Notes: generated from the letters alone by a model not told the origin. Counted from the first letter of the stretch, positions 4,564-64,000 are shown. The stretch is DNA of 64,000 nucleotides from Leptospiria bacterium (GCA_965261485.1 CBDHCY010000005.1:1484901-1548900), one strand, 5' to 3'. Numbers and translations: made by a program.

Positions 4564-5522
4564 AAATTCAAAGTTAAATTGAGGTTCGGCCTACTTTTTT
4601 ATTGTGATAGTGGCGGCATTGGCTGAAACCCATAAACACCCATCAAATTCAAATTCAAATTGACAATTGAAAATAGAAAATGGAAAATTGAGGTTCAGCC
4701 TACTTTTTTATTGTGATAGTGGCGGCATTGGCTGAAACCCATAAACACCCATCAAATTCAAATTCAAATTGACAATTGAAAATAGAAAATTGAGGTTCAG
4801 CCTACCTTTTTATTGTTATAGTGGCGGCATTGGCTGATACTCATAAGCACCCATCAAATAGAAAATGGAAAATTGAGGTTCAGCCTACTTTTTTATTGTG
4901 ATAGTGGCGGCATTGGCTGAGCTTCATAAGCACCCACCAAATTGACAATTGAAAATAGAAAATGGAAAATTGAGGTTCAGCCTACTTTTTTATTGTGATA
5001 GTGGCGGCATTGGCTGAGCTTCATAAGCACCCACCAAATTGACAATTGAAAATTGAGGTTCAGCCTACTTTTTTATTGTGATAGTGGCGGCATTGGCTGA
5101 GCTTCATAAGCACCCACCAAATAGAAAATGGAAAATTGAGGTTCGGCCTACCTTTTATTGTGATAGTGGCGGCATTGGCTGAGCTTCATAAGCACCCATC
5201 AAATTCAAATTCAAATTCAAATTCAAATTGAAAGTTGAAAATGGAAAATTAAAAGTTCAGCCTACTTTTTTATTGTTATAGTGGCGGCATTGCCTGAAAC
5301 CCATAAACACCCACCAAATTGAAAATTGAAAATTGAGGTTCGGCCTACCTTTTATTGTGATAGTGGCGGCATTGGCTGAGCTTCATAAGCACCCACCAAA
5401 TTGAAAATGGAAAATTGAGGTTCGGCCTACTTTTTATTGTGATAGTGGCGGCATTGCCTGAAACCCATAAACACCCACCAAATTGACAATTGAAAATTGA
5501 GGTTCAGCCTACTTTTTTATTG
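4564..5522 (-). repeat. 3'-tail cassette array A2 (10 extra units) between the P2 stop and the P1 promoter
   Basis: TAGTGGCGGCATTG starts at 4608, 4717, 4819, 4902, 4999, 5082, 5164, 5279, 5361 and 5443, and at the true gene end 5526. Unit lengths are 109, 102, 83, 97, 83, 82, 115, 82, 82 and 83 bp. Confidence 0.9.
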
Positions 5523-7446
5523 TTATAGTGGCGGCATTGGCTGAAACTCGTAAGCACCCATGTCAATGAGAGGGCCTGAACTAGCAGACTTGCCCTTTAC
5601 AATACGAGCCTTGCCGGCTAGGTCTAGGGCACCTGCTGGGAATAAAGGCGTCCCACTAGACCCATTACTACCCGCATCAATCGCAGGTGAAGTCGCCGTT
5701 AAACGTAAATCATCATCGAGCGTGCCAGCAACATTATCAACACCATCGGCGTCTGCAAACAGAGGGTCAGCGTCAATATTATTACCAGTATTACCAGAAG
5801 CACAACTATTAGCATGCCCTGATGCCCACCAATTGGTATCCGTGCTACAACCTTGAATCAGGCTGTGTGAAATAGTAACTATTCCAGAAGAACTGCCGTT
5901 GCAAAAATTAATATTACCTTTTGCTGTCCCTACAGGACAAGCTAGGGACATATTATCTGAAAAAATAACATTACTCAGTTTTAAACCAGTACCACTATTG
6001 AACAGACCGCCACCAACAGAATCAGACTTATTGCCTGAAAAAATAACGTTACTCAAAGTTGCATTAGTACTAGAATTAAAGAAACCGCCGCCAACAGTAA
6101 CAGCCCAATTGCCTGAGAAAATAACATTACTCAGTTTTAAACCAGTACCACCATTGAACAGACCGCCACCACCAAAACCGCCAGAACTATGATTACTGGC
6201 TGTATTGCCTGAGAAGATAACATTACTCAAAGTTAAATCCCCAGCAGCAGTATACATACCGCCGCCAGAATCGGCACTATTGCCTGAGAAGATAATATTA
6301 CTCAAAGTTAAATTATCACCACTACTATTATTATATATACCGCCACCAGAACTTCTACCACCACTAGAACCATTTGATAGACCAGCTGTAATCGTAAAGC
6401 CCTCTAAAGTTGTACCAGCCGCCCCTGTAACAACCGTATAAACATTGTTACCCTTAATATCGCTAGTAACTGTGGTGCTACCAGTCATAACTCGATTGGT
6501 CGTTTCTGTAACGCCATCAGCATTAACGATGTCATTATTATCAATGTCACCGCTGAGAATAGTTTTATTCACCAGCCAGTTACGCTCACTTAACGAGGCA
6601 TCTGCGACATCAAAACCACCATAGACCTTGACATTTGATTTCAATTGAAAAGTAGCACTTCTATCAGAAGTTGTAGACGTAGGCTTATAAACACCTTTAG
6701 CCACCACAATCTTATTAGTGACTGCAGAAGATGTTAACGCTGAGTTTAGAGAGCTATAAGCATTCGACCAACTCGTGCCATCACCCGTGCCACTCGCAGC
6801 AGCATTCACAAAAATAGTCTTATCAGAGCTTCTCGTTGCAGATATCTCAACACCCGCGGCGTAATTATGGCTTGCATCATAAGCGAAGATTTTATAATAG
6901 TAGGCGGTGTTTACCGTTGCGGCACTAACGCCGAAATCAGAAGAATTTGCACTCTGCACCACCTCTGAGCTACCAATATCACCACCAACCGTATATTCTT
7001 CACCAGCACTAGGCACGTCTACTATTGAGCTTGTATTTCTTAAGATTAAAACACCAGAGAAATCAGCATCTGTCGGGTTTGCCCAAACAATCACGTTTAA
7101 GTCTCCAAAAGTAGCACCACTCACCACGGCTGGTGCCTCTGTATCTGTTGAGACAGGAGTCGTTGGCATATTCGGATTTGTTCCGCCGGGATCTGTTGGG
7201 TCAGGGTTCTTTCCGCCGGGCTCTATTGGCACAGCCGGATCTTTAGCATCGTCAGAGCAAGAGACGTTAAAGGCAAAAAAAATAAGGATTAATAATAAAC
7301 CTTGAGTAACCTTGAGTAACCTTGAGTAACCTTGAGTAACCTTGAGTAACCTTGAGTAACCTTGAGTAACCTTGAGTAACCTTGAGTAACCTTGAGTAAC
7401 CTTGAGTAACCTTTTGAGTTGATTTAAGTGCTTTTAATAGTTTCAT
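5523..7446 (-). CDS. P2: phase-variable beta-helix surface lipoprotein paralog, currently OFF
   Basis: Body ORF 5523-7232 (569 aa) has the same architecture as P1. The ATG at 7446-7444 (MKLLKALKSTQK) is separated from the lipobox by an 11-unit decamer tract and is out of frame with the body. Confidence 0.8.
7300..7413 (-). repeat. decamer tract, 11 perfect copies of CCTTGAGTAA
   Basis: Counted directly: units run from 7300 to 7409, followed by CCTTTTGAG. Confidence 0.95.
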
Positions 7447-7534: not shown

Positions 7535-8469
7535 AAATTCAAAGTTAAATTGAGGTTCAGCCTACTTTTTTATTGTGATAGTGGCGGCATTGCCTGAAAC
7601 CCATAAACACCCATCAAATTCAAATTCAAATTGACAATTAAAAATGGAAAATTAAAAGTTCAGCCTACTTTTTTATTGTTATAGTGGCGGCATTGCCTGA
7701 AACCCATAAACACCCATCAAATTCAAATTCAAATTGACAATTGAAAATAGAAAATTGAGGTTCAGCCTACCTTTTTATTATGATAGTGGCGGCATTGCCT
7801 GAAACCCATAAACACCCATCAAATTCAAATTCAAATTGACAATTGAAAATAGAAAATTGAGGTTCAGCCTACCTTTTTATTATGATAGTGGCGGCATTGG
7901 CTGAGCTTCATAAGCACCCATCAAATTGAAAGTTGAAATTGACAATTGAAAGTGGAAAATTAAAAATTCAGCCTACCTTTTTATTGTTATAGTGGCGGCA
8001 TTGCCTGAAACCCATAAACACCCATCAAATTCAAATTCAAATTCAAATTCAAATTGAAAGTTGAAAATGGAAAATTAAAAGTTCAGCCTACTTTTTTATT
8101 GTGATAGTGGCGGCATTGCCTGAAACCCATAAACACCCATCAAATTCAAATTAAAATTGACAATTGAAAGTGGAAAATTGAGGTTCAGCCTACCTTTTTA
8201 TTGTGATAGTGGCGGCATTGGCTGAGCTTCATAAGCACCTATCAAATTGAAAGTTGAAAGTGGAAAATTGAGGTTCAGCCTACTTTTTTATTGTTATAGT
8301 GGCGGCATTGGCTGAGCTTCATAAACACCCATCAAATTCAAATTCAAATTCAAATTGAAAATGGAAAATTGAGGTTCAGCCTACTTTTTATTGTTATAGT
8401 GGCGGCATTGGCTGAGCTTCATAAGCACCCACCAAATTGACAATTGAGGTTCAGCCTACCTTTTTATTG
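7535..8469 (-). repeat. 3'-tail cassette array A3 (9 extra units) between the P3 stop and the P2 promoter
   Basis: Nine copies of ATAGTGGCGGCATTG[GC]CTGA... precede the true P3 end at 8470. There are two tail alleles (GAGCTTCATAAGCACCC and GAAACCCATAAACACCC) and one hybrid (GAGCTTCATAAACACCC, about 8310). Confidence 0.9.
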
Positions 8470-10471
8470 TTATAGTGGCGGCATTGGCTGAAACTCGTAA
8501 GCACCCATGTCAATGAGAGGGCCTGCACTAGCAGACTTGCCCTTTACAATACGAGGCTTGCCGGCTAGGTCTAGGGCACCTGCTGGGAATAAAGGCGTCC
8601 CACTAGACCCATTACTACCCGCATCAATCGCAGGTGAACCCATCATTAAACTTAAATCATCATCGAGCGTGCCAAAAACATTATCAACACCATCAGCGTC
8701 TGCAAACAGAGGGTCAGCGTCAATGTTATTACCAGTATTACCAGAAGCACAACTATTAGCATGCGTTGATGCCCACCAATTGGTATCCGTGCTACAACCT
8801 TGAATCAGGCTGTGTGAAATAGTAACTGTTCCAGTAGAACTGCTGTTGCAAAAATTCATATTACCTTTTGTTGTCCCTACAGGACAATCTGAGGACATAT
8901 TATCTGAAAAAATAACATTACTCAGTTTTAAACCAGCACCACCATTAAACAGACCGCCACCAGCAGAATCAGACTTATTGCCTAAAAAAGTAACGTTACT
9001 CAAAGTTACATCCTCACCACCATTACGCATACCCCCACCAACAATCTTAGACTTATTGCCTGAGAAAATAACATTACTCAAAATTAAATCCTCACCACCA
9101 TTATTAGAGAACCCGCCGCCGCCCAAAAGGCCAGAACCATGATTACTGGCTGTATTGCCTGAAAAAATAACATTACTCAAAGTCATATTCATACCACCAC
9201 TATTATACATACCGCCGCCAGAATCGGCTAGATTGCCTGAGAAGATAATATTACTCAAAGTTACATTAGCACTACTACCACCATCATTATACAGACCGCC
9301 GCCAGCTGCAGCACTACTACTAGAACCATTTGATAGACCAGCTGTAATCGTAAAGCCCTCTAAAGTTGTATTAGACGCCCCTGTAACAACCGTATAAACA
9401 TTGTTACCCTTAATATCGCTAGTAACTGTGGTGCTACCAGTCATAACTCGATTGGTCGTTTCTGTAACGCCATCAGCATTAACCGTGTCATTATTATCAA
9501 TGTCACCGCTGAGAATAGTTTTATTCACCAGCCAGTTACGCTCACTTAATAAAGTATCTGCGACATCAAAACCACCATAGACCTTGACATTTGATTTCAA
9601 TTGAAAAGTAGCATTTCTCCCAGGAGTTGAAGACGTAGGCGTAGGCTTATAAATACCTTTAGCCACCACAATCTTATTAGTACCTGCAGAAGATGTTAAC
9701 GCTAAGTTTAGAGAGCTATAAGCATTCGACCAACTCGTGCCATCACCTGTACCACTCGCAGCAGCATTCACAAAAATAGTCTTATCAGAACTTTCTCTCG
9801 TTGCTTCGATCTCAACACCCGCGGCATAATTATGGCTTGCATCATAAGCGAAGATTTTATAATAGTAGGCGGTGCCTGCCGTTGTGGCACTAACGCCGAA
9901 ATCAGAAGAATTAGCACTCTGCACCACCTCTGAGCTACCAATATCACCACCAACCGTATATTCTACACCAGCACTAGGCACGTCTGCTATTGAGACTGTG
10001 TTTCTTAAGATTAAAACCCCAGAGAAATCAGCATCTGTCGGGTTTGCCCAAACAATCACGTTTAAGTCTCCAAAAGTAGCACCACTCACCCCAGCTGGTG
10101 CCTCTGTATCTGTTGGATCAGGAATCAACCCGCCGGGATTTTTCCCACTGGGATCTGTTGGGTCAGGGTTCTTTCCGCCGGGCTCTATTGGCACAGCCGG
10201 ATCTTTAGCATCGTCAGAGCAAGAGACGTTAAAGGCAAAAAAAATAAGGATTAATAATAAACCTTGAGTAACCTTGAGTAACCTTGAGTAACCTTGAGTA
10301 ACCTTGAGTAACCTTGAGTAACCTTGAGTAACCTTGAGTAACCTTGAGTAACCTTGAGTAACCTTGAGTAACCTTGAGTAACCTTGAGTAACCTTGAGTA
10401 ACCTTGAGTAACCTTTGAGTAACCTTTGAGTAACCTTTGTGAGTTGATTTAAGTGCTTTTAATAGTTTCAT
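8470..10471 (-). CDS. P3: phase-variable beta-helix surface lipoprotein paralog, currently OFF
   Basis: Body ORF 8470-10194 (574 aa) plus leader ORF 10229-10471 (MKLLKALKSTHKGYSKVTQRLLKV...). The leader frame ends in ...FIINPYFFCL*, which is the lipobox region read in the wrong frame. Confidence 0.8.
10262..10436 (-). repeat. decamer tract, 15 perfect copies plus two 11-bp variants (CCTTTGAGTAA)
   Basis: Counted directly: perfect units run from 10262 to 10411, with variant units at 10412-10433. Confidence 0.95.
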
Positions 10472-15824: not shown

Positions 15825-15873
15825 ATAAAATACTTGCTTTGGGGTAATTGTTGTCGCTACCTCTACCCAACAA

Positions 15874-16315
15874 GCAAGGCACCACTCGTAACTGGCGGTC
15901 AACCACTCTCGCCCAAGCGAGCAAGGCACCACTCGTAACTGTTGGTCAACCACTCTCGCCCAGCGAGCAAGGCACCACTCGTAACTGGCGGTCAACCACT
16001 CTCGCCCAAGCGAGCAAGGCACCACTCGTAACTGGCGGTCAACCACTCTCGCCCAAGCGAGCAAGGCACCACTCGTAACTGTTGGTCAACCACTCTCGCC
16101 CAGCGAGCAAGGCACCACTCGTAACTGGCGGTCAACCACTCTCGCCCAAGCGAGCAAGGCACCACTCGCAACTGGCGGTCAACCACTCTCGCCCAGCGAG
16201 CAAGGTACCACTCGTAACTGGCGGTCAACCACTCTCGCCCAAGCGAGCAAGGCACCACTCGCAACTGGCGGTCAACCACTCTCGCCCAGCGAGCAAGGCA
16301 CCACTCGTAACTGTT
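15874..16315. repeat. GC-rich 46/47-bp tandem minisatellite (9 full units plus a partial unit)
   Basis: The unit is GCAAGGCACCACTCGTAACTGGCGGTCAACCACTCTCGCCCAAGCGA. Unit starts are at 15874, 15921, 15967, 16014, 16061, 16107, 16154, 16200, 16247 and 16293, giving lengths 47, 46, 47, 47, 46, 47, 46, 47 and 46. The array fills the convergent gap between murA and the 1150-aa surface protein gene. Confidence 0.9.
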
Positions 16316-16325
16316 GATTGTCCGT

Positions 16326-19300
16326 CTATCGTTGTTGCCCAGCGATCAGATCGCCGTATGACCCACACAAATCAGTGATGGATAGGGTGCTCGTATCAAC
16401 GGTTGAGACGCAAAGCTTAACCGCAGGCAACTGCTCGTCGGTTCCTAGCTCCCAAGCTTTTGTGTCATCCTCCATCATATCGTTAGGAGTCATATCATGA
16501 GGCAAACCATCAGGATGCATGCCACTTATGGCTTTTAGTTGCATTAACGTAAGGCCCGTCGCACCTGATACGTCCGTCACCATCACAACACCTCCCATTT
16601 CTGAAACCGCAGCATTACCCTGTGCCCGCTTGGGGCTTTGGGGAGTCACAGTCATTCCATTAGTTATTTCTTGAGATACCTCTGTATTCCAATAACTATC
16701 TGTAACTGTTAAAGAAGTCAAAGGATTATCAAAATAACCCACTAAACCGCCAGAATAAAGATTGGAGGATCCAGATCCAGACTCGGATTCAGACTCAGAT
16801 TCAGACTCAGATTCAGACTCAGATTCAGATTCAGAGGACCCAAAGGAATTAGAGGAAGAAATTTCAGCAGAACATGCCATCATGGAGGGGGGGCTGCTCA
16901 TAGAAGGGGGGCTGCTCACAGGAGGACAATCAAGCCCACCAAAATAACTATTCTCAATTGTCAAAAATTTAGAATAACCCACTAATCCACCAGAAGCAGC
17001 TTTAGAAGAAGAAGAAGAAGAGATTTTACCAAGACCAGTAAAATAACTATTCTCAATTGTCAAATTAGCACGCATGCCCGTTTCACCTACAATACCACCA
17101 GAATAAGAAGAAGAGGAAGAAGAGGAAAGAGGCTGAAAAGAAGAAGAAGATAAAATATTAATATCTCCACTAAAATAACTATTTTGAATTATTAAATCAG
17201 TTTCAGCATACCCAACGAGACCTCCAGAAGCAGAAAATCTATTAGTATTAAAAGATAATTTAGAAGAAGAGATTTCACTTTCATCACTACCAGAGAAAGA
17301 ACTATAACTATTGATAATTGTTATGGCAATATCAGCATCAGTCATTCTAGAGATTAATGTCTTACCCACCAGACCGCCAGCAGTAGAAGAAAAAGAAGAA
17401 GCAAGAGAAGTGATTTTATTGTTACCACTACCAGAGAAAGAACTATAACTATTGATAATTGTTATAGCAAAATTAGAGGTATTAGAATTATCCAATCCAG
17501 CTTGACCGATTAGCCCGCCAGATGAAGAACGAGAAGCAGAAGAAGAAATTTTTTTCTCACCATTACCAGAAAAAAAACTACGACTATTGTCAATTGTGAG
17601 ATTAATATTGACAGGGTTATCAGAACTGCAATCAGAGTTATCAGAATTGCAATCAGACATAAGTATTTGACCCATCAACCCACCAGATGAAGAACGAGAA
17701 ACAGAAGTGCTAGAAGAAGCAGAAGTGATTTTATGAGCATAATTACCAGAAAAAGAACTAAAACTATTCTTAATCATTATATCAGCATTCGTATTTGATA
17801 CCTCAGTGTGCCCTATTAAACCACCAGAAAAAGAAAGCTCTAAAGAGAAAGAAGAGATTTTATCATCATCATCACCAATACGAATACCAGAGAAAGAACT
17901 AGAACTGTTCTTAATCATTATATTGTTAGCCTTTCCCATAATCTTCAAAGATTTCACATTGCCCACCAAGCCACCGGAAAAAGAAGAGGAAGAAGAAGAA
18001 GAAATGATTTCATTACCAGAGAAAGAACTACCCGTTATCGTCAATGAACCAATTATACGACCTGCTAAACCACCTGAGTAAGCGAAAGATCGATCACGAC
18101 CAGCCATTACAACAGGAGCATAAGATAAGGCTCCGCCACCAGAAAAACTACTATTTGTGATCATCAAATTAACGAAAGCCCCCCCCACTAAACCGCCCGA
18201 ATAAGAATAAGAACAATTACCGTTAAAAGTAGAGATCAAACAAGCATCAACAGAAGACGAATAAGAAGAAACTTCATTAAATCCACTAAAAGTACAATTT
18301 TCGATCGCCAAAGAAGATTTAGCATAACCGACCAAACCACCTGAATAAGCAACACCAGAACTGAAAGCACGGGAATATATCGAACCCAAACTGACCTCCA
18401 CGTTGCGTATTTCAGATTCTCCACCATCGGTAGCACCAAACAGACCAGCGTAAACTTCATCTGACTGAGAACGAATATTCACCCATAGGTTGGTTATGGT
18501 ATGTCTATTACCTTCAAAAATACCCGTGAAGGGATTATTACCATCACCAATAGGTATCCAACTAATGTCTTTGTTTGTATCAATGACACTTACTTGATCA
18601 TTTGAGTCAGAAGTATTACTATTACCATTTTTATCAATGTCAACCATCGTTGTATCAATACCCCTACTTTTATTTGCATCAAGCAAACTCAAAAGATCAA
18701 TGTTCGTTGTCAACTCATAGCCTTTACAGACACCCGATGGGCAACCACCTGAAATACCAGGATCACTACTCGAAGTTTTATAGCTAGCACCCGATAAATC
18801 GTAGCGAATGTTGTGGAGCATTATATCATTATCAATTTCGATGAGACCATCGTGATCCATGTCAACCTCATCATTATTGATCAAAGAAAATGCAACCTCT
18901 TCAAGATTTGAAAAACTAACTTGGTTAAAATTTGAATCAGTCGTGGTTACACGATGTTTAAGAGTATAAAAAAAATCATAGCTCTTTTCAGAATCTTCGA
19001 GATAGCAAATTTCAATCTCTTTAGATATATTAAAATTTGTGGAATCAAAAGTAATACTTGTTGGGTCTATGCTTGGCATCACTCTAAAAGGTAGAATTGT
19101 CTCTGAATAAATCTCGATGGTGAGGTTAGTAATAGGTCTTTTATCCACCAAAGTTGATCTTGTTCTTGAATCAATCTCTATTGTGAAATCAGTATTCGTT
19201 TCTTCTAACAAACGTATTGAATAATGTCCGCAAGTTCCTCCTTCATTAAGGTTAATATTCCGTGCAGTTATTGTTACTCCTTTAAGTTTAAGTGAAGTAT

Positions 19301-19778
19301 TATTGATAAAATGAGCGATAAGGTTCGGAAAACGAGCAAAAGTCATTTGATTAAAGCTTGGCTGATTGCTTGCTATACGATGCTTTATGATATAATAAAA
19401 ATCATCATTTCTCACAGTATCTTCAGGGTAACCGATTACAACTGTTTGAGCTTTATTAAAATTGGTGACATTAAAAGTAATGCTTGTTGGGTTTATTCTT
19501 GGTATTACTCCAAAAGGTGGGGATGTATCTGAATAAATTTCAACAGTGAGGTCAGTACTAGGTTTTTTTGACAAACGTATTGAATAACCAACCTCAGTTC
19601 CCTTTTTGACGGTAATCTCTTGCATATTTAGTATCAGCCTGAGAGTAGTGCCCTTTTTAGCAATTTCGGGAGGTGGTACTACATTTGAACACCGAAGAAA
19701 AAAAAGACAAGTAAGGATAATAATAATAAATATCTGCTTTAGGTGAATAAGAATGAGATTTTTAATCGTCTGTTTCAT
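16326..19778 (-). CDS. large Ser-rich secreted/surface protein with GLUG-motif beta-helix repeats
   Basis: N-terminal hydrophobic signal; three ~100-aa related Ig/Calx-like modules (TVEIYSDTSPPFGVIPRINPTSITF, TIEIYSETILPFRVMPSIDPTSITF); a GLUG-type entry segment (WIPIGDGNNPFTGIFEGNRHTITNLWV...YAGLFG); many SGGL[VIM]G repeats separated by Ser-rich SSFSG modules; and an (SE)n run. Confidence 0.7.
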   Translation of the reverse strand: MKQTIKNLILIHLKQIFIIIILTCLFFLRCSNVVPPPEIAKKGTTLRLILNMQEITVKKGTEVGYSIRLSKKPSTDLTVEIYSDTSPPFGVIPRINPTSITFNVTNFNKAQTVVIGYPEDTVRNDDFYYIIKHRIASNQPSFNQMTFARFPNLIAHFINNTSLKLKGVTITARNINLNEGGTCGHYSIRLLEETNTDFTIEIDSRTRSTLVDKRPITNLTIEIYSETILPFRVMPSIDPTSITFDSTNFNISKEIEICYLEDSEKSYDFFYTLKHRVTTTDSNFNQVSFSNLEEVAFSLINNDEVDMDHDGLIEIDNDIMLHNIRYDLSGASYKTSSSDPGISGGCPSGVCKGYELTTNIDLLSLLDANKSRGIDTTMVDIDKNGNSNTSDSNDQVSVIDTNKDISWIPIGDGNNPFTGIFEGNRHTITNLWVNIRSQSDEVYAGLFGATDGGESEIRNVEVSLGSIYSRAFSSGVAYSGGLVGYAKSSLAIENCTFSGFNEVSSYSSSVDACLISTFNGNCSYSYSGGLVGGAFVNLMITNSSFSGGGALSYAPVVMAGRDRSFAYSGGLAGRIIGSLTITGSSFSGNEIISSSSSSSFSGGLVGNVKSLKIMGKANNIMIKNSSSSFSGIRIGDDDDKISSFSLELSFSGGLIGHTEVSNTNADIMIKNSFSSFSGNYAHKITSASSSTSVSRSSSGGLMGQILMSDCNSDNSDCSSDNPVNINLTIDNSRSFFSGNGEKKISSSASRSSSGGLIGQAGLDNSNTSNFAITIINSYSSFSGSGNNKITSLASSFSSTAGGLVGKTLISRMTDADIAITIINSYSSFSGSDESEISSSKLSFNTNRFSASGGLVGYAETDLIIQNSYFSGDINILSSSSFQPLSSSSSSSYSGGIVGETGMRANLTIENSYFTGLGKISSSSSSKAASGGLVGYSKFLTIENSYFGGLDCPPVSSPPSMSSPPSMMACSAEISSSNSFGSSESESESESESESESESESGSGSSNLYSGGLVGYFDNPLTSLTVTDSYWNTEVSQEITNGMTVTPQSPKRAQGNAAVSEMGGVVMVTDVSGATGLTLMQLKAISGMHPDGLPHDMTPNDMMEDDTKAWELGTDEQLPAVKLCVSTVDTSTLSITDLCGSYGDLIAGQQR
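16766..16838 (-). repeat. in-frame hexa/dodecanucleotide repeat encoding (SE)n-GSGS
   Basis: Iterations of TCAGACTCAGAT encode SESESESESESESESESGSGSS. Confidence 0.85.
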
Positions 19779-49982: not shown

Positions 49983-50192
49983 CAAATGGAGGTTCAGCCT
50001 ACCTTTTTATTGTTATAGCGGTGGCATTGCCTGAAACTCATAAACACCCATCAAATTCAAATTGAAAGTTGAAAATGGAAAATTGAGGTTCAGCCTACTT
50101 TTTATTGTTATAGCGGCGGCATTGGCTGAGCTTCATAAGCACCCATCAAATTGAAAGTTGAAAATGGAAAATTGAAGGTTCAGATTACTTTT
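49983..50192 (-). repeat. 3'-tail cassette array A4 (2 units) downstream of P4
   Basis: Units at about 50012 (TATAGCGGTGGCATTGCCTGAAACTCATAAACACCC) and about 50108 (TATAGCGGCGGCATTGGCTGAGCTTCATAAGCACCC). Confidence 0.85.
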
Positions 50193-52122
50193 TTATTGAC
50201 TTTCGTAAGCACCCATATCTATGCTACTGCCTACAATACGAGCCTTGCCTGCTAGGTCGGTGGCACCTGCTGGGAATAAAGGCATCCCAGGAGGCCCATT
50301 ACTACCCGCATCAATCGCAGGTGAAGTCGCCATTAAACGTAAATCGTCATCAAACAGAGGGTCAGCGTCAATATTATTACCACCATCGCCATTATTGCCA
50401 GTGCTATCATCACCGTCATTATCGTCGCCACAACTACTAGTGCCCATTGCCCAAGTGGAACCACTAGCACCACAACCTTGAATCAAGCTGTGTGAAATAT
50501 TAATTATCCTATTATTAGTAGACGATCTGTTACTGCAAATATTCTGATTACCTCGGAAACTCCCTCCAGTACAAGTGCCCGCTGTATTGCCCCACATAAT
50601 GACATTAGTCAAGGTGACGGTATTTTCATTTTGAAAAAAAGCAGCTCCCCCAGCATCAGTAGCCGTATTATTTGAAAAGACAACATTATTTAAAGTGAAA
50701 TTAACAGCCGCCCTATCACTCTGCAGACCGCCACCATTAACATCAGACGTATTATCTGAAAAGACAACATTCTCTAAAATTCCATCATACCCCTCATTAT
50801 ACAGACCGCCGCCGCCCAGCCTAAAGCCGTTTGGGTCAACGCTTGCATTGCCTGAAAAAAAAACATTACTTAAATTAATAGTACTACCAACACTAGAAGA
50901 TAGTAATAGACCACCGCCACCATTAGCCGTATTACCGAAGAAAATAATATTACTCAAAGTTACATTATCATTATTTACATTACGCATACCGCCACCAAAA
51001 GCATTCCTTGGCACATTAATATCAGAACCATTTGATTGACCAGCTGTAATCGTAAAGCCCTCTAAAGTTGTATTAGACGCCCCTATAACAACCGTATAAC
51101 TATTACTACCCACAATGTGACTAGCATTTTCTATAATGCCATCATCATTAGAATCAGTATCGTCACCACCAATGTCACCGCTGAGAATAGTTTTATTCAC
51201 CCGCCAGTTACGCTGACTCAATGAATGCTCTGTACCCACGAAACCACCATAGACCTTGACCTTTGATACCAATTGAAAAGTAGCATTTCTATCAGAAGTT
51301 GTAGACGTAGGCTTATAAACACCTTTAGCCACCACAATCTTATTAGTGGCTACAGAAGATGTTAACGCTGAGTTTAGAGAGCTATAAGCATTCGACCAAC
51401 TCGTGCCATCACCCGTACCACTAGCAGCAGCATTCACAAAAATAATTTTACCTGATCGTCTTGTTGCTTCAATCTCAACACCCGCAGCGTAATTATGGCT
51501 TGCATCATAAGCAAAAATTTTATAATAGTAAGAAGTGCCTACCGTTGCGGTACTAACGCCGAAATCAGAAGAATTTGCACTCTGCACCACCTCTGAGCTA
51601 TCAATATCATCACCAACCGTATATTCTGTACCAGCACTAGGGGCGTCTACTATTGAGACTGTGTTTCTTAAGATTAAAACACCAGAGAAATCAGCATCCG
51701 CTGGGTTCATCCAAGTGATTACATTTAATAAGTCTCCAAAAGCAACGCCACTCACCACAGCTGGTGGCTCTGTATCTGTTGGATCAGGAATCGTTGGCAT
51801 ATTCGGATTTGTTCCGCCGGGATTCTTTCCACCGGGATTTGTTGGGTCAGGATTTTTCCCACTGGGCTCTATTGGCACAGCCGGACCTTTAGCATCGTCA
51901 GAGCAAGAGACGTTAAAGGCAAAAAAAATAAGGATTAATAATAAACCTTGAGTAACCTTGAGTAACCTTGAGTAACCTTGAGTAACCTTGAGTAACCTTG
52001 AGTAACCTTGAGTAACCTTGAGTAACCTTGAGTAACCTTGAGTAACCTTGAGTAACCTTGAGTAACCTTGAGTAACCTTGAGTAACCTTTTGAGTTGATT
52101 TAAGTGCTTTTAATAGTTTCAT
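50193..52122 (-). CDS. P4: phase-variable beta-helix surface lipoprotein paralog, currently OFF
   Basis: Body ORF 50193-51878 (561 aa, ends IDMGAYESQ*) plus leader ORF 51913-52122 (MKLLKALKSTQKVTQGYSRLLKV...FIINPYFFCL*). Confidence 0.8.
51946..52089 (-). repeat. decamer tract, 14 perfect copies of CCTTGAGTAA
   Basis: Counted directly: units run from 51946 to 52085, followed by CCTTTTGAG. Confidence 0.95.
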
Positions 52123-52126
52123 GTCT

Positions 52127-52155
52127 TCTTATCGTACACTAAAACAGTCTGTCAA
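52127..52155 (-). promoter_or_regulatory. candidate promoter of P4 (TTGACA-17-ATAAGA)
   Basis: Minus strand reads TTGACAgactgttttagtgtacgATAAGAagacATG. The -10 is at 52132-52127 and the -35 at 52155-52150. Confidence 0.35.
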
Positions 52156-52212
52156 TAAAAAAATGTTTTTTTGATAATTTCTGAATACTTTGAAATTTAA
52201 AGACATCTAATT

Positions 52213-52422
52213 AAATTCAAATGGAGGTTCAGCCTACTTTTTTATTGTTATAGTGGCGGCATTGGCAGAGCTTCATAAAGCATCCACCAAATTCAAATCG
52301 AAAGTGGAAAATTGAGAGTTCAGCCTACTTTTTTATTGTTATAGCGGTGGCATTGGCTGAGCTTCATAAGCACCCATCAAATTCAAATTGAAAATTGAAA
52401 ATGGAAGGTTCAGATTACTTTT
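52213..52422 (-). repeat. 3'-tail cassette array A5 (2 units) downstream of P5
   Basis: Units at about 52248 and about 52342 (TATAGTGGCGGCATTGGCAGAGCTTCATAAAGCATCC and TATAGCGGTGGCATTGGCTGAGCTTCATAAGCACCC). Confidence 0.85.
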
Positions 52423-54315
52423 TTATTGACTTTCGTAAGCACCCATATCTATGCTATTGCCTACAATACGAGCCTTGCCTGCTAGGTCTAGGGCACCAGT
52501 TGCGAATAAAGGCATTCCAGTAGGCCCATTACTACCCGCATCAATCGCGGGTGAACCCGCCTTTAAACGTAAACCATCATCGGCCGTACCAAAAATATTA
52601 TCAGCACCATTGGGGTCATCAGCGTCTGCAAACAGAGGGTTATTACTATCAATATTATTACCAGTATTACCAGAAGCACAACTATTAGCATGCGTTGATG
52701 CCCACCAATTGGTATCCGTGCTACAACCTTGAATCAGGCTGTGTGAAATAGTAACTGCAACAAGCATACCGCCGCTACAAAAATTAGCATTACCTTTGGC
52801 ACTGTTTCCAGTACAAGCCATCGCCGTATTGCCCCACATAATGACATTAGTCAAAGTAAGATCAGCAGAAGCATTTGACAGACCGCCACCAGTAGTACCA
52901 GACTCATTGCCTGAGAAAATAACATTACTCAAAGTTAAACGAGGACTAGCATTACGCATACCGCCACCAAAAACAGCAGACTTATTGTCTGAGAAAATAA
53001 TATTACTCAAAGTTAAACTGAAATCAGAACTAGACAAACCGCCGCCACCAAAAGAGCTAACACGCTGATTACTGGCTGTATTGCCCGAGAAAATAATATT
53101 ACTCAAAATTAAATTCCTACCAACATTGTACATACCGCCGCCAGAATCGGCTGTATTGCCTGAGAAAATAATATTACTCAAAATTAAATTATCACTAGAA
53201 CTATGCATACCGCCCCCCAGAATAACGACACCAATACCCCTACTGGCATTTGATTGACCAGCTGTAATCGTAAAGCCCTCTAAAGTTGTATCACCCGCCC
53301 CTGTAACAACCGTATAACTATTACTACCATTAATATCGCTAGTAGCTGTGGTGCTACCAGAACTAACTCGATTGGTCGTTTCTGTAACGCCATCAGCATT
53401 AACCGTGTCATTATTATCAATGTCACCGCTGAGAATAGTTTTATTCATCCGCCAGTTACGCTCACTTAATAAAGTATCTGCGACATCAAAACCACCATAG
53501 ACCTTGACCCCTGATATCAATTGAAAAGTAGCACTTCTATCAGAAACTGAAGGTGGAGACACTAAAGGCATCGCAAGTGTAGTAGGCTTATAAACACCTT
53601 TAGCCACCACAATTTTATCACCAGTGGTGGCGACGACTCCTTCAGCAGGAGGTTTTAACACCGACCGTAGATCGCTATAAGCATTCGACCAACTCGTGCC
53701 ATCACCCGTACCACTAGCAGCAGCATTCACAAAAATAGTCTTATCAGAACTTTTTGTTGCTTCGATCTCAACACCCGCGGCGTAATTATGGCTTGCATCA
53801 TATGCGAAGATTTTATAATAGTAAGAAGTGCCCATCGTTGCGGCACTAACGCCGAAATCAGAAGAATTTGCACTCTGCACCACCTCTGAGCTACCAATAT
53901 CACCACCAACCGTATATTCTTTACCAACACTAGGAGCGTCGTCTGTTATTGAGACTGTATTTCTTAAGATTAAAACCCCAGAGAAATCAGCATCTGTCGG
54001 GTTTGCCCAAACAATCACGTTTAAGTCTCCAAAAGTAGCACCACTCACCACAGCTGGTGGCTCTGTATCTGTTGGATCAGGAATCGTTGGCATATTCGGA
54101 TTTGTTCCGCCGGGATTCTTTCCACCGGGATCTGTTGGGTCAGGGTTCTTTCCGCCGGGCTGTGTTGGCACAGCCGGATCTTTAGCATCGTCAGAGCAAG
54201 AGACGTTAAAGGCAAAAAAAATAAGGATTAATAATAAACCTTGAGTAACCTTGAGTAACCTTGAGTAACCTTGAGTAACCTTTTGAGTTGATTTAAGTGC
54301 TTTTAATAGTTTCAT
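52423..54315 (-). CDS. P5: beta-helix surface lipoprotein paralog, intact and in frame (ON)
   Basis: Single 630-aa ORF: MKLLKALKSTQKVTQGYSRLLKVTQG-LLLILIFFAFNVSC|SDDAKDPAVPTQPGGKNPDP..., followed by the Fn3-like block, FSGN/GGG repeats and a C-terminal ...IDMGAYESQ*. The decamer tract has 4 units. Confidence 0.88.
   Translation of the reverse strand: MKLLKALKSTQKVTQGYSRLLKVTQGLLLILIFFAFNVSCSDDAKDPAVPTQPGGKNPDPTDPGGKNPGGTNPNMPTIPDPTDTEPPAVVSGATFGDLNVIVWANPTDADFSGVLILRNTVSITDDAPSVGKEYTVGGDIGSSEVVQSANSSDFGVSAATMGTSYYYKIFAYDASHNYAAGVEIEATKSSDKTIFVNAAASGTGDGTSWSNAYSDLRSVLKPPAEGVVATTGDKIVVAKGVYKPTTLAMPLVSPPSVSDRSATFQLISGVKVYGGFDVADTLLSERNWRMNKTILSGDIDNNDTVNADGVTETTNRVSSGSTTATSDINGSNSYTVVTGAGDTTLEGFTITAGQSNASRGIGVVILGGGMHSSSDNLILSNIIFSGNTADSGGGMYNVGRNLILSNIIFSGNTASNQRVSSFGGGGLSSSDFSLTLSNIIFSDNKSAVFGGGMRNASPRLTLSNVIFSGNESGTTGGGLSNASADLTLTNVIMWGNTAMACTGNSAKGNANFCSGGMLVAVTISHSLIQGCSTDTNWWASTHANSCASGNTGNNIDSNNPLFADADDPNGADNIFGTADDGLRLKAGSPAIDAGSNGPTGMPLFATGALDLAGKARIVGNSIDMGAYESQ
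54239..54282 (-). repeat. decamer tract, 4 perfect copies of CCTTGAGTAA
   Basis: Counted directly: units run from 54239 to 54278, followed by CCTTTTGAG. Confidence 0.95.
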
Positions 54316-54319
54316 GTCT

Positions 54320-54348
54320 TCTTATCGTACACTAAAACAGTCTGTCAA
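54320..54348 (-). promoter_or_regulatory. candidate promoter of P5 (TTGACA-17-ATAAGA)
   Basis: Same sequence as the P4 promoter. The -10 is at 54325-54320 and the -35 at 54348-54343. Confidence 0.35.
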
Positions 54349-54404
54349 TAAAAAAATGTTTTTTTGATAATTTCTGAATACTTTGAAATTTAAAGACATC
54401 TAAT

Positions 54405-54547
54405 TAAATTCAAATGGAGGTTCAGCCTACTTTTTATTGTGATAGTGGCGGCACATTGGCTGAGCTTCATAAAGCATCCACCAAATTCAAATTGAAAGTT
54501 CAAAATGGAAAATTGAAAGTTGAGAGTTCAGAGTTCAGATTACTTTT
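54405..54547 (-). repeat. 3'-tail cassette array A6 (1 unit) downstream of P6
   Basis: One unit at about 54441 (GATAGTGGCGGCACATTGGCTGAGCTTCATAAAGCATCC), followed by hexamer-rich spacer. Confidence 0.8.
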
Positions 54548-56656
54548 TTATTGACTTTCGTAAGCACCCATATCTATGCTACTGCCTACAATACGAGGGT
54601 TGCCGGCTAGGTCTAGGGCACCAGTTACGAATAAAACTTTCGTATTATCACTAGGATCAACATTACTACCCGCATCAATCGCGGGTGAACCCGCCCTTAA
54701 ACGTAAATCGTCATCAAACAGAGGGTCAGCGTCAATGTTATTACCACCATCAGTGCCGCATCTACTGAGATTAGTTGCTGAGCTCCAAATGGAAGAACCA
54801 CTAACACCACAATCTTGAATCAAGCTATGTGAAATAGTAGGCTGTACATTGAAGGTGCAAAAATTAACATTACCCTTAAAATTGTCTCCAGTACAAGCAG
54901 CCCCTGTATTGCCCCACATAATGACATTGGTCAAGATAGCAACAGCACTTCCAGTATTTTTGCGAATTTGACTTCCTCCACCTACATTAGTAGCTGTATT
55001 GTTTGAAAAAACAACATTAGTCAAGGTTAAATTAGCATCAACACTTTGTATACCGCCACCAAAACTGGCCATATTGCCTGAAAAAGCAACATTGGTTAAA
55101 ATAGCACCACCACCACGAATAGTAAGACCACCTCCACCCAAAATAGTAGCTGTATTGTTTGAAAAAACAATATTAGTTAAGGTTAAATTATCACTACCCT
55201 TAGCATAAAAACCGCCACCAACATTGGCTGCATTGCCTGAAAAAGTAATATTAGTTAAAGTTAAATTATGATTATCTATATTATACACGCCACCACCCCT
55301 ATTAATATAATTACCGGTACCTGCAGGAGCATTTGATTGACCAGCTGTAATCGTAAAACCGTCTAGAATGGCATCGCTCGCCCCTGTAACAACTGTATAA
55401 CTATTATTAGCGATTACAGTCATCATACCACCAGCATCCACCATTTCGGTACCCTTAATGTCATCAGCATTTTCTATAATGCCATCACGATTAGAATCAG
55501 TATCGTCACCACCAATGTCACCGCTGAGAATAGTTTTATTCACCCGCCAGTTACGCTCACTTAACGAGGCATCTGCGACATCAAAACCACCATAGACCTT
55601 GACATTTGATATCAATTGAAAGGTAGCATTTCTCCCAAGAGTTGAAAGTGTAGACCTAGGCTTATAAATACCTTTAGCCACCACAATCTGAACTGGTAGA
55701 GTCTCAGTCGCATCATCAGCTATTTTAGATTCTAACGCTGAGTTTAGGGAGCTGTAAGCATTCGACCAACTCGTGCCATCACCCGTGCCACTCGCAGCAA
55801 CATTCACAAAAATAATTTTATCAGAGATTTTCGTTGCAGAGATCTCAAAACCTGTGGCATAGTTACGGTTTGTATCATAAGTGAAGATTTTATAATAATA
55901 CTTTTTATAACGGTAAGGAATATTTTCTCCATCCTGTTCCCTTATATCTGTGAGGTCAAAGTCAAGAGATTTTGCATCGTGCACCACCTCTGAGGCACCA
56001 ATTGAAACACCAACCGTATATTCTTTACCAGCACTAGGGGCGTCTACTATTGAGCTTGTATTTCTTAAAATTAAAACTTTAGAGAAATCAGCATCTGTTG
56101 GGTTTAACCAAGTGATTTTGTTCGTGAAATCACTAAAAGTAACATCGCTCACCTCAGCTGGTGGCACTGTATCTGTCGGATTGGTTTTTGTCGAACCAGG
56201 TGTTTTGTAGTCAGCCAGTGCTGGTATATATTTATTAACCTTAGTCTGAACACCGTTGTTGTAGTAGAGATAAGTGTCACAGACAAAGATTTTATAAAAA
56301 TAAACGACATCCTCTACAACTTCTGTGTCTCTAAAAGTTGGTGCGGCTGCGTTATAGGCTACCCGTGAGGCTCCCATTGCGGTGAAGACAGGATAATCTC
56401 GCCAAGGTCTAGGAAAACCTTGGATAGCACTTGTATTCTTTAAGATTAGAACCTTATTGTAGATGTTACGGCCTCTACTCGCAGGATTCTTCCATGCTAG
56501 GGTTATCCCGCTTGAATTACGATTAACGGTAAGATCTGTGACTTCTGGTAGAGGGTCATCCAACCCATTCAAAAAATATGCACGACCAATTTTAGTGCAA
56601 TGCAGGAAAATCAGTAGGAAAAAAAAACTTATAAAAAATAGAAATCTTGAGTTCAT
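54548..56656 (-). CDS. P6: beta-helix surface protein paralog, long form with a duplicated Fn3-like domain and no decamer switch
   Basis: 702-aa intact ORF. It has a different signal peptide (MNSRFLFFISFFFLLIFLHC), two Fn3-like modules (…VYFYKIFVCDTYLYY and …YYYKIFTYDTNRNY), TLTN[IV]xFSxNxA..GGG repeats, and ends IDMGAYESQ*. Confidence 0.85.
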   Translation of the reverse strand: MNSRFLFFISFFFLLIFLHCTKIGRAYFLNGLDDPLPEVTDLTVNRNSSGITLAWKNPASRGRNIYNKVLILKNTSAIQGFPRPWRDYPVFTAMGASRVAYNAAAPTFRDTEVVEDVVYFYKIFVCDTYLYYNNGVQTKVNKYIPALADYKTPGSTKTNPTDTVPPAEVSDVTFSDFTNKITWLNPTDADFSKVLILRNTSSIVDAPSAGKEYTVGVSIGASEVVHDAKSLDFDLTDIREQDGENIPYRYKKYYYKIFTYDTNRNYATGFEISATKISDKIIFVNVAASGTGDGTSWSNAYSSLNSALESKIADDATETLPVQIVVAKGIYKPRSTLSTLGRNATFQLISNVKVYGGFDVADASLSERNWRVNKTILSGDIGGDDTDSNRDGIIENADDIKGTEMVDAGGMMTVIANNSYTVVTGASDAILDGFTITAGQSNAPAGTGNYINRGGGVYNIDNHNLTLTNITFSGNAANVGGGFYAKGSDNLTLTNIVFSNNTATILGGGGLTIRGGGAILTNVAFSGNMASFGGGIQSVDANLTLTNVVFSNNTATNVGGGSQIRKNTGSAVAILTNVIMWGNTGAACTGDNFKGNVNFCTFNVQPTISHSLIQDCGVSGSSIWSSATNLSRCGTDGGNNIDADPLFDDDLRLRAGSPAIDAGSNVDPSDNTKVLFVTGALDLAGNPRIVGSSIDMGAYESQ

Positions 56657-62084: not shown

Positions 62085-64000
62085 TTATTGGCCTTCATAA
62101 GCACCCATATCTATGCGATCGTTTACAATACGAGGGTTGCCGGCTAGGTCGGTGGTTATCTCAGCGGGTAGCCCACCATTGTCGGCCGTACTACCCACAT
62201 CAATCGCAGGTGAACCCGTATTTAAACGTAAATTGTCATCAAGCGTACCAACAACATTATCAGCACCATCGGCGTCTACAAACATTGGATAATTAGCATA
62301 ACCAGCAGCTGTCGGGTCACCATCAATATTATTACCACCATCGCCATTATTGCCAGTGCTATCATCACCATCATTATCGTCGCCACAACTGCTAACACCC
62401 GTTGCCCAAGTGGAACCACTAACACCACAACCTTGAATCAAGCTGTGTGAAATATTAATTGTCCTGGTATCACCAGACAATTTGCTACTGCAAATATTCT
62501 GATTACCTCGGGAATTCGCTCCAGTACAAGTGCCCGCTGTATTGCCCCACATAATGACATTGATCAAGATAATACTTCCAGCTCCATAAATACTACTTCC
62601 TCCACCTCCATCAGCAGTAGCTGTATTGTTTGAAAAAACAACATTAGTCAAGGTTAAATTAGCATGAGTACTCCGTGTACCGCCACCAAAAGGGGCCATA
62701 TTGCCTGAAAAAGCAACATTGGTTAAAATAGCACTACTACGAAAATTAGTAAGACCACCACCACCTAGATTGGAAGCAGTGTTCCCAAAAAAAAGAATAT
62801 TAGTTAATATTAAATTATTACTATTTCTACTATACACACCGCCGCCACCACCGGCTGCATTGCCTGAAAAAGTAATATTAGTTAAGGTTAAATTATGATT
62901 ATCTATATTATACACGCCACCACCCCTATTAGTATGGTTAAAGGTACCAGTAGGACCATTTGATTGACCAGCTGTAATCGTAAAACCATCTAAAATGGCA
63001 TCACTCGCCCCTGTAACAACTGTATAACTATTATTAGCGATTACAGTCATCATACCACCAGCATCCGCCATTTCGGTACCCTTAATGTCATCAGCATTTT
63101 CTGTAACGCCGGCAGCATTAACAGTGTCGTCACCACCAAGATCACCGCTTAAAATGGGTTTGTTCACCCGCCAGTTACGCTCACTTAATGAGGTCTCTGT
63201 ACCACTAAAACCACCATAGACCCTGACATGTGATATCAATTGAAAAGTAGCATCTCGATCAGAAACTAAAGACGTAGGCTTGTAAACACCTGCAGCCACC
63301 ACAATTTGAACTGGTAGAGCCGAGGTCGCGGCAGTGGCTGTAGAAGATGTTAACGCTGAGCTTAAATCGCTAAAAGCATTCGACCAACTCGTGCCATCAC
63401 TCGAACCACTCGCACCACCCGCAGCATTAACAAAAATAGTCTTATTAGTATTTTTCGTTGCAGAGATTTCAACACCCGCGGCATAATTACGGCTTGCATC
63501 ATAAGCGAAGATTTTATAAAAATAAAGAGTGCCCGCCGTTGCCGCTCTAACGCTGAAATCAGGAGAATTGGCATTGTACACCACCCGTGAAGTACCAATT
63601 GAAGCATCAACTATATATTCTTCACCAGCACTAGGGCCATCTATTATTGAGATTGTATCTCTTAAGATTAAAACCTTAGAGAAATCAGCATCCGCTGGGT
63701 TTATCCAAGTAATTACATTTAATAAGTCTCTAAAAGTAACATCGCTCACCTCAGCTGGTGATTGTGTATCAGCTGGTGGTGGTATATATTTATTAACCTT
63801 AGTCTGAACGCCGAAATTGTAATAAAGATAAGTGTCAGAGACAAAGACTTTATAAAAATAAACGACATCCTCTACAACTTCTGTGTCTCTAAAAGTTGGT
63901 GCGGCTGCGTTATAGACTACCCGTGAGACTCCCATTGTGGTGGAGACAGGATAATCTCGCCAATGTTTAGGAAAATCTTGGATAGCACTTGTATTCTTTA
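62085..64000 (-). CDS. P7: beta-helix surface protein paralog (long form like P6); the N-terminus lies beyond the window end
   Basis: ORF track 62085-63935. The frame stays open to 64000: hand translation gives ...KNTSAIQDFPKHWRDYPVSTTMGVS, parallel to P6 KNTSAIQGFPRPWRDYPVFTAMGAS. Ends IDMGAYEGQ*. Confidence 0.85.
   Translation of the reverse strand, partial: KNTSAIQDFPKHWRDYPVSTTMGVSRVVYNAAAPTFRDTEVVEDVVYFYKVFVSDTYLYYNFGVQTKVNKYIPPPADTQSPAEVSDVTFRDLLNVITWINPADADFSKVLILRDTISIIDGPSAGEEYIVDASIGTSRVVYNANSPDFSVRAATAGTLYFYKIFAYDASRNYAAGVEISATKNTNKTIFVNAAGGASGSSDGTSWSNAFSDLSSALTSSTATAATSALPVQIVVAAGVYKPTSLVSDRDATFQLISHVRVYGGFSGTETSLSERNWRVNKPILSGDLGGDDTVNAAGVTENADDIKGTEMADAGGMMTVIANNSYTVVTGASDAILDGFTITAGQSNGPTGTFNHTNRGGGVYNIDNHNLTLTNITFSGNAAGGGGGVYSRNSNNLILTNILFFGNTASNLGGGGLTNFRSSAILTNVAFSGNMAPFGGGTRSTHANLTLTNVVFSNNTATADGGGGSSIYGAGSIILINVIMWGNTAGTCTGANSRGNQNICSSKLSGDTRTINISHSLIQGCGVSGSTWATGVSSCGDDNDGDDSTGNNGDGGNNIDGDPTAAGYANYPMFVDADGADNVVGTLDDNLRLNTGSPAIDVGSTADNGGLPAEITTDLAGNPRIVNDRIDMGAYEGQ

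Follow-up and report, generated by a model that had tools for sequence, protein, structure and literature searches.

Mosaic genes and a leader repeat in a family of putative beta-helix lipoproteins from a Leptospiria bacterium

How do seven long paralogous genes of one bacterial genome come to share blocks of nearly identical DNA in different combinations? The question is raised by a stretch of 64,000 nucleotides from a Leptospiria bacterium (GCA_965261485.1, CBDHCY010000005.1:1484901–1548900), hereafter the window, in which positions are counted from the first letter, and in particular by positions 50193–56656, which hold three of these genes. An initial annotation of this DNA had attributed the patchwork to gene conversion or recombination among the paralogs, adding antigenic variation to on/off switching. 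Taking all lines of evidence together, we consider a switchable, recombining family of surface lipoproteins to be the best explanation, with a probability of roughly 85%.

The family is represented in the window by seven long open reading frames (ORFs) on the minus strand, P1 to P7, which are clear paralogs with overall pairwise DNA identities of 69% to 91%. P1 (2449–4200), P2 (5523–7232) and P3 (8470–10194) occupy one locus; P4 (50193–51878), P5 (52423–54315) and P6 (54548–56656) occupy a second; and P7 (62085–64000) continues past the end of the window, the full protein, P0015, having 709 residues. At least five further paralogs (P0007, P0010, P0011, P0013 and P0014) lie outside the window on the same 2,133,161-bp contig. 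As had been proposed, all seven window genes have a fibronectin type III (Fn3)-like block and a C-terminal block of the form SPAIDAGS...DLAG..RIV...DMGAYE, both of which can be aligned in every member. The layout of P5 consists of a leader, MKLL...LILIFFAFNVSC, a linker rich in Pro, Thr and Gly, a beta-sandwich of about 100 residues, a helix region of five N-x-x-F-x-x-N/GGG coils, and the DMGAYE end. P6 and P7 possess a second N-terminal beta-sandwich, giving P6 two Fn3-like domains, and a different-looking leader.

The four cases of block sharing named in the annotation all hold in the DNA, each block being restricted, among the seven genes, to the pair concerned. P1 and P3 share the block DNVFGTLDDDLSLMMGSPAIDAGSNG at 78/78 nt, and P4 and P5 share a linker block at 71/72 nt. 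The block common to P4 and P7 is identical at 69/72 nt, with 93.9% identity over 131 nt (50380–50510 against 62335–62465), and that common to P6 and P7 at 102/105 nt, with 96.6% identity over 118 nt (55343–55460 against 62970–63087). The P4 linker GGTNPNMPTIPDPTDTEPPAVVSG, together with its flanks, forms a minus-strand tract at 51748–51838 that matches P5 exactly over 91 nt (54041–54131), and another P4 tract, at 51147–51214 (minus strand), matches P6 exactly over 68 nt (55490–55557). At a lower level of identity, the P4/P7 block covers 50358–50619 on the minus strand (NVIMWGNTAGTCTG...SSCGDDNDGDDSTGNNGDGGNNID, about 91% identical to approximately 62313–62574), and the P6/P7 block, which takes in IKGTEM.DAGGMMTVIANNSYTVVTGASDAILDGFTITAGQSN as well as the first coils, covers 55187–55492 on the minus strand (about 92% identical to approximately 62814–63119). 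The longest exact tract joins P1 and P2 over 179 nt (3928–4106 and 6972–7150), and one of 154 nt joins P1 and P3 (3373–3526 and 9376–9529). Exact tracts also connect the two loci: 103 nt of P5 (52655–52757, minus strand) recur in P3 at 8726–8828, 44 kb away, and tracts of 86 and 84 nt are shared by P2/P5 and P1/P5, respectively.

Sliding-window comparison showed that the nearest relative switches several times along every gene. P4 is closest to P5 at 51714–51848 (96%), to P2 at 51351–51422 (98%), to P6 at 51123–51224 (97%, with the runner-up at 84%) and to P7 at 50358–50619 (91% against 73%), and its core, at approximately 50620–50930, has no close relative in the window (best match about 50–80%). 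P5 is closest to P4 at 54037–54141 (99%), to P1 and P3 at approximately 53356–53502 (98%) and to P3 at 52564–52737 (95–100%). For P6, the nearest relative is P7 at 56225–56386 (93% against 39%), P2 at 55523–55627 (98%), P4 at 55451–55567 (97% against 84%) and P7 again at 55187–55492 (92% against 68%). Three stretches are invariant in all seven genes, namely, 26 nt encoding DGTSWSNA, 15 nt encoding VYGGF and 19 nt encoding FTITAGQ. By inspection, the block boundaries of P4 and P6 lie near these stretches, as would fit homology-dependent exchange anchored at conserved motifs.

Statistical tests of the codon alignment of the seven paralogs agreed with this picture. The pairwise homoplasy index (PHI) deviated strongly from permutation (z = −12.8, with none of 2000 permutations as extreme), and did so when the coil core was removed (z = −11.9) and when third codon positions alone were used (z = −5.7). 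Runs of identical polymorphic sites were significant in many pairs (p ≤ 0.0005 per pair). Bootstrapped neighbour-joining trees, built on successive segments of the alignment, conflicted with support of 97–100%: P6 and P7 group together at 100% in the Fn3, helix-N and core segments, P4 and P7 at 100% in alignment columns 621–700, P2, P3 and P5 at 97–99% in the core and helix-C segments, and P1, P2 and P3 at 100% in the C-terminus. The annotation had named congruent N-terminal, core and C-terminal trees without breakpoints as the pattern that would speak against exchange, and the trees were the opposite of this. Synonymous divergence (dS) jumped 10- to 30-fold between adjacent segments of one gene pair; for P1/P2 it was 0.02–0.06 in the Fn3, cap and C-terminal segments against 0.42–0.60 in the core, and for P4/P7 it dropped from 0.90 in the core to 0.14 in the adjoining segment. 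Such swings along single pairs indicate exchange of DNA, since constraint on the protein cannot yield them. When 15 sequence blocks were scored as present or absent in 18 family members, several pairs of blocks showed all four combinations, in violation of the four-gamete condition; tail types 1 and 2, for example, are each found both with cap type C and with cap type D. Taken together, PHI, the tract tests and the heterogeneity of dS support recombination, not uneven selective constraint, and they favour the proposed origin of the patchwork by gene conversion or recombination among paralogs.

The second feature of the family, located within the signal-peptide codons of P1 to P5, is a perfect tandem repeat with a 10-bp unit that reads ACTCAAGGTT on the coding strand. 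The arrays, all on the minus strand, span 4266–4441 in P1 (17.6 copies), 7298–7413 in P2 (11.6), 10260–10437 in P3 (17.6), 51944–52089 in P4 (14.6) and 54237–54282 in P5 (4.6), and contain 17, 11, 15, 14 and 4 perfect copies, respectively. P5, with its intact MKLL...FFAFNVSC lipoprotein leader, is the only one of these five genes in frame with its ATG (frame state 0); P2, P3 and P4 are in state 1, P4 relative to an ATG at 52122, and P1 is in state 2. Beyond the repeat, the reading frames of the four out-of-frame genes remain open for 560–580 codons, which argues that these genes are preserved but reversibly silenced and are not pseudogenes in decay. Contigs of related strains, described below, carry 1, 8 and 10 repeat units. 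The 5′ regions of the five MKLL-type genes are almost identical overall and identical within one locus. The 5′ region of P6 (56600–56740) is homologous to the MKLL-type leader; its ancestral ATG reads ATA, its start is shifted to ATGAACTCAAGATTT, and it retains one decayed repeat unit and a T9 run in the signal-peptide codons. By these features P6 looks like a locked-on copy. In the strain contig L084, a G8 homopolymer (positions 1531–1538) directly precedes the ATG of the family gene P0012, where the equivalent gene of contig L082 has GTGTGGGT; it is possibly a switch tract of another type.

The same loci were then compared across isolates, using four contigs (L081 to L084) from the ENA sample ERZ26693861, each of 3–4x coverage according to the contig names. 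L081 and L082 are two haplotypes in one sample, with flanks 95.5% identical to each other, and both are 98.1–98.7% identical to the window across the genes for the OmpA-like protein, RNase R, the E1 component of 2-oxoglutarate dehydrogenase (OGDH) and ApbE. In both, a single family gene between RNase R and OGDH takes the place of P6, P5 and P4, and their alleles at the P7 position are only 73–80% identical and have a different N-terminal architecture. Similarly, L083 is 96.5% identical to the window upstream of P3 and 97.1% identical downstream of P1, and a single gene replaces P3–P2–P1. L084 represents a third tandem array. The single genes are themselves mosaics: along the L082 gene, the nearest window relatives are, in order, P5, P1/P2, P5, P6, P3, P7/P4 and P6/P5, the second P5 stretch including 75/75 identical nucleotides in the KPPAEGVVATTGD insertion, and the L083 gene at the P1–P3 locus includes a P6-like tract. 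Mosaics and gene number therefore differ (three against one at both loci) between flanks that are about 97–99% identical, and this turnover of content and gene number beside near-identical housekeeping DNA is as expected from unequal crossing-over and ectopic conversion.

Each gene is also followed by a tandem array. These arrays, present downstream of every family gene, comprise 2 to about 11 copies of units of 82–110 bp, each made up of the last 13 or so codons (GAYE.QPMPPL and the stop) and about 50 nt of 3′ flank. The array downstream of P5 lies at 52219–52428 (minus strand), and others lie at 49984–50198, 2210–2484, 4576–5560 (about 11 copies), 7547–8507 (about 10 copies) and approximately 54400–54550. 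Relics of the QPMPPL type sit behind genes that now end in YESQ. A role of the arrays as RNA structures or terminators was rejected, as the 3′-end units folded no better than shuffled sequences (z about 0) and a terminator scan of the window stayed at background; nothing in the window reached an Rfam gathering score. Scanning metagenomes with a 19-mer of the 3′-end unit returned 15 single matches, attributable to chance and lacking blastn or tblastn similarity to the family.

We next weighed other origins of the mosaics. The strongest is that they arose mainly from alleles imported from other strains, through horizontal exchange such as transformation and subsequent homologous replacement at the locus. 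The very different alleles in corresponding slots, only 73–80% identical within flanks of 97–99% identity, are in its favour, as are the presence of L081 and L082 in a single sample and the cores of some strain genes, which have no close match among the window paralogs. The long exact tracts within one genome, including the 103 nt common to P3 and P5, and the homogenization of 5′ regions within a locus are against it, and require intragenomic exchange at some stage. Import and intragenomic conversion are not mutually exclusive, and one genome cannot separate them; as the main source of the mosaics, import seems to us possible, though not probable.

A patchwork produced by assembly, with similar paralogs or strains joined at shared k-mers, is very unlikely. 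The genome is metagenome-derived, the family is highly repetitive and the strain contigs have low coverage, all of which invite such joins. However, the 2.13-Mb contig resolves arrays of 17 copies of 10 bp and of about 11 copies of 100 bp, which is rare for short-read graph assembly; all seven genes keep open frames of 560–700 codons; blocks are shared on many scales among 18 independent sequences; and the third-position PHI and dS patterns are coherent.

Slightly less credible still is a dedicated system of diversification, be it a retroelement, a site-specific shufflon or an expression site fed by silent cassettes. The conserved 3′-end arrays behind every copy might serve such a system as a guide or anchor, and are comparable to the repeats flanking pil and vls cassettes. 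The scanned ORFs of the window, a subset of the total that includes several without a family match, yielded no reverse transcriptase, invertase, integrase or transposase, and the neighbouring genes are housekeeping genes. A diversity-generating retroelement or shufflon was rejected for want of a reverse transcriptase among the scanned ORFs and because only 41–55% of core mismatches involve A, mismatches of all base types being present. A silent-cassette model was likewise rejected: every copy is full-length with its own 5′ region, and tblastn of the window found no family fragments outside the seven full genes except their own leaders. With neither cassettes nor a dedicated enzyme among the scanned ORFs, general homologous recombination among complete genes is likely. 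Finally, the reading that there was no recombination at all, only unequal constraint along an old duplicated gene whose scaffold motifs are conserved in the protein while its loops are free to vary, is contradicted by the jumps in dS, the third-position PHI and the incompatible groupings supported at 100%, and is extremely unlikely.

What kind of protein is being varied? The C-terminal module was recognized by the NCBIfam model NF041518 (choice-of-anchor Q C-terminus) in P4, P5 and P6, at 39.4, 38.2 and 38.4 bits against a curated cutoff of 25. The Pfam model PF02415 (Chlam_PMP repeat) matched P4 at 26.5 bits (cutoff 20.6); P1, P6 and P7 had sub-cutoff matches and P5 had none. No autotransporter domain was detected in the Pfam search, the proteins terminating with the choice-of-anchor Q module. 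As structure prediction had been suggested as a check, we examined an AlphaFold (AF2) model of P5, in which residues 190–500 mostly had a predicted local distance difference test (pLDDT) score of 80–95, with one block of 10 residues at 66–75. Its best matches in the PDB were all right-handed parallel beta-helices, at weak scores (best E 6.7e-3, template modelling score 0.2–0.46, root-mean-square deviation about 9–10 Å) that lend the predicted beta-helix fold qualitative support. The beta-sandwich, modelled separately, had a pLDDT of 82, and fibronectin type III domains were found in nearly all of its top 50 PDB matches. The models thus agree with both folds that had been predicted for the family.

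The FSGN and GGG motifs were seen in all seven paralogs. The initial annotation had stated that this core differs in both sequence and repeat number. The first part stands, as loop sequence and coil length (25–34 residues) differ; the second does not, because each of the seven window paralogs has exactly five N-x-x-F-x-x-N coils. Six coils are present in P0013, a paralog elsewhere in the genome. Variability is concentrated in the coils, with a mean entropy of 1.37 bits against 0.48 bits in the Fn3 block, and it is periodic along the helix: the scaffold residues (L-x-L-x-N-V-I-F-S-G-N and GGG) are nearly invariant, and the stretches after G-N and G-G-G are hypervariable. This periodicity is consistent with a fixed helix bearing variable loops. 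By sequence reading, the leaders end in ...LILIFFAFNVSC/SDD in P5 and ...LLIFLHC/TK in P6, offering candidate lipobox cysteines.

As for the organism, the genome has a GC content of about 31%. The OGDH E1 protein of the window is 55–57% identical to that of Leptospira and 76–79% identical to proteins of metagenome contigs, and the adjacent OmpA-like protein has a Leptospira adhesin model as its best match, below the cutoff of that model. On the basis of these proteins, we take the source organism to be an uncultured Leptospira-related spirochete. In the genomes nearest by OGDH E1 (76–79%), no family gene adjoins the OGDH E1 gene. Beyond this genome and the one ENA sample, the nearest relatives of the family are 30–42% identical, indicating a lineage-specific expansion. 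A scan of species-representative genomes likewise found distant relatives only, at 42% identity or less, and those distant relatives that were examined match about 50–70% of the query, in the C-terminal part comprising the helix and the end. The expansion amounts to a dozen or so copies, and the products are best explained as secreted lipoproteins, probably exposed at the cell surface.

Several observations weigh against a switchable, recombining family of surface lipoproteins. PHI gave little signal when restricted to the coil core (z = −1.6, p about 0.05), which suggests that the core tends to be exchanged whole and not in small pieces. Pairwise ratios of nonsynonymous to synonymous divergence, a crude measure, were 0.5–1.0 and never clearly above 1, so that diversifying selection is unsupported. 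A scan detected no sigma-70 promoter upstream of the leaders, the TTGACA–TACGAT pair there being spaced by just 13 nt. The comparison covers one complete genome and a few contigs at 3–4x coverage, too little to show the direction or rate of exchange or its occurrence within a cell lineage. We infer lipoprotein processing and surface exposure from the leader sequence, and to call the variation antigenic is conjecture.

Our preferred explanation, a switchable and recombining surface lipoprotein family, may be put as follows. The complete genes would diversify by ordinary homologous recombination among themselves, presumably dependent on RecA, in short and apparently non-reciprocal exchanges, tens to a few hundred nucleotides long, that involve tandem neighbours as well as loci about 45 kb apart. 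The near-invariant segments DGTSWSNA, VYGGF, FTITAGQ, NVIMWGNT, ISHSLIQGC and SPAIDAGSN would act as anchors for exchange, and unequal crossing-over between tandem copies would alter gene number, as in the three genes against one at both loci. The helix scaffold would stay fixed while loops and whole core cassettes reassort, and slipped-strand changes in the 10-bp repeat would switch individual genes on or off. Switching and reassortment together would yield a combinatorial repertoire of surface variants, as in Neisseria opa, on which host immunity, phage or grazers might act as the selective agent. A more far-reaching version, which we regard as improbable, would make the variation frequent and semi-programmed: the out-of-frame copies would serve as a donor reservoir for one or two in-frame genes, with the 3′-end arrays and invariant motifs as anchors, so that new mosaics and on/off combinations would arise on ecological time scales. 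If true, the Leptospira lineage would have its first known system of this kind, with beta-helix lipoproteins as the scaffold.

Repeat-driven switching and the reshuffling of blocks in surface families are classic means of immune, phage and niche evasion, described mainly in a few cultured pathogens. The nearest parallel is the opa family of Neisseria, in which the signal-peptide coding region contains a repeat with a unit length indivisible by three and hypervariable regions are reassorted (PMC4534519). Both families have about a dozen complete paralogs, dispersed or clustered, with an on/off repeat and with blocks reassorted among paralogs and strains; the sequence features of this class, namely, complete paralogs, a repeat unit indivisible by three (here 4 to 17 copies), differing frames and reassorted blocks, are all present in the window. 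However, Opa proteins are small eight-stranded beta-barrels of the outer membrane with a CTCTT pentamer repeat, whereas the proteins described here are beta-helix lipoproteins of about 600–700 residues with a 10-bp unit, unrelated to Opa in sequence or fold, and switching has been observed experimentally in opa, whereas here it is predicted from the DNA.

In the tandem lipoprotein (lpl) cluster of Staphylococcus aureus, a conserved sequence within the ORF is the site of recombination (Tsuru and Kobayashi 2008, PMC2568036). This cluster resembles the present loci in its tandem lipoprotein paralogs, in the incongruent phylogenies of 5′ and 3′ parts and in gene number and arrangement that vary among strains, but the protein family is unrelated and has no leader repeat switch, and a single central conserved region lies there between two variable ones, in contrast to the several conserved anchors and several variable blocks found here. 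The chlamydial Pmps, whose expression is reported to resemble phase variation (PMC5025070), are likewise a paralogous beta-helix family with GGA/FxxN-type repeats, PF02415 being matched above its cutoff by P4 alone; yet Pmps are autotransporters with a C-terminal beta-barrel, whereas the present proteins have a lipobox leader, Fn3 and choice-of-anchor Q modules and no barrel.

Segmental transfer at conserved junctions is also found in Borrelia vlsE, Neisseria pilE/pilS and Treponema pallidum tprK, of which vlsE and tprK occur in spirochetes. In each of those systems, partial donor cassettes lacking a promoter accompany a single expression site, whereas the copies here are all entire genes that have 5′ regions of their own, and there are no fragments in the window. 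By homology, the closest proteins are those of NF041518, which have the SPAIDAG...DLAG.PR...D.GAYE module; distant relatives (30–42% identity) occur in Chloroflexota, Planctomycetota and Bacteroidota and have both the helix and the end, but are mostly single, longer (900–1100 residues) and provided with other added domains. Among the similarity-search matches, as judged from the match tables rather than from the relatives' loci, the leader repeat, the Fn3 head and the dozen-copy expansion were confined to this lineage. The family therefore consists of choice-of-anchor Q beta-helix proteins by homology and is an Opa-like contingency family by mechanism. Our literature search, which was not exhaustive, found no description of this family or of a repeat-switched lipoprotein family in Leptospira relatives.

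The composition of the window also sets the family apart. The annotation had described the family genes as more GC-rich than the surrounding genes, and 1-kb bins bear this out, with values of 0.39–0.42 against about 0.25–0.36 for most other bins. The excess is mostly at second codon positions (0.50 against 0.32; third positions, GC3, 0.31 against 0.22), a consequence of the Gly/Ala/Ser/Thr-rich composition. By segment, GC3 was 0.43 in the linker, 0.35 in the C-terminus, 0.33 in the cap, 0.32 in Fn3 and 0.24–0.25 in the coil core, compared with 0.22 in other genes. The raised GC3 of the often-exchanged blocks is compatible with GC-biased gene conversion, codon and amino-acid effects being uncorrected in these values.

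An unrelated bin, 16001–17000, is an exception in composition, with a GC content of 0.51. A 46/47-bp tandem repeat (15866–16313; 9.6 copies, 94–96% matches) sits between an aroA-like gene and the stop of an ORF with a GLUG motif; its combined 93-bp period would correspond to 31 codons, and by eye it looks far richer in GC than the surrounding genome. The ORF itself (16326–19778, minus strand) encodes 1150 residues with internal repeats, matches the GLUG motif alone, and reaches 51% GC over 1 kb at its 3′ end. This gene, too, is compositionally odd and probably surface-related.

The principle of switching combined with block reassortment is not new, and the significance of these loci lies in providing what looks like a clean example, with good statistical support, from an uncultured Leptospira relative. 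Two features may raise its interest, namely, the 3′-end arrays behind every copy and a GC3 that is higher in exchanged blocks than in the core. At the level of strains, turnover with three genes against one at two loci stands beside housekeeping genes that are 98% identical, and the family offers a natural test case for tract lengths, for anchor motifs and possibly for GC-biased conversion in bacteria. For the uncharacterized choice-of-anchor Q beta-helix lipoproteins, it provides a function-related handle, suggesting a variable, probably exposed surface layer.

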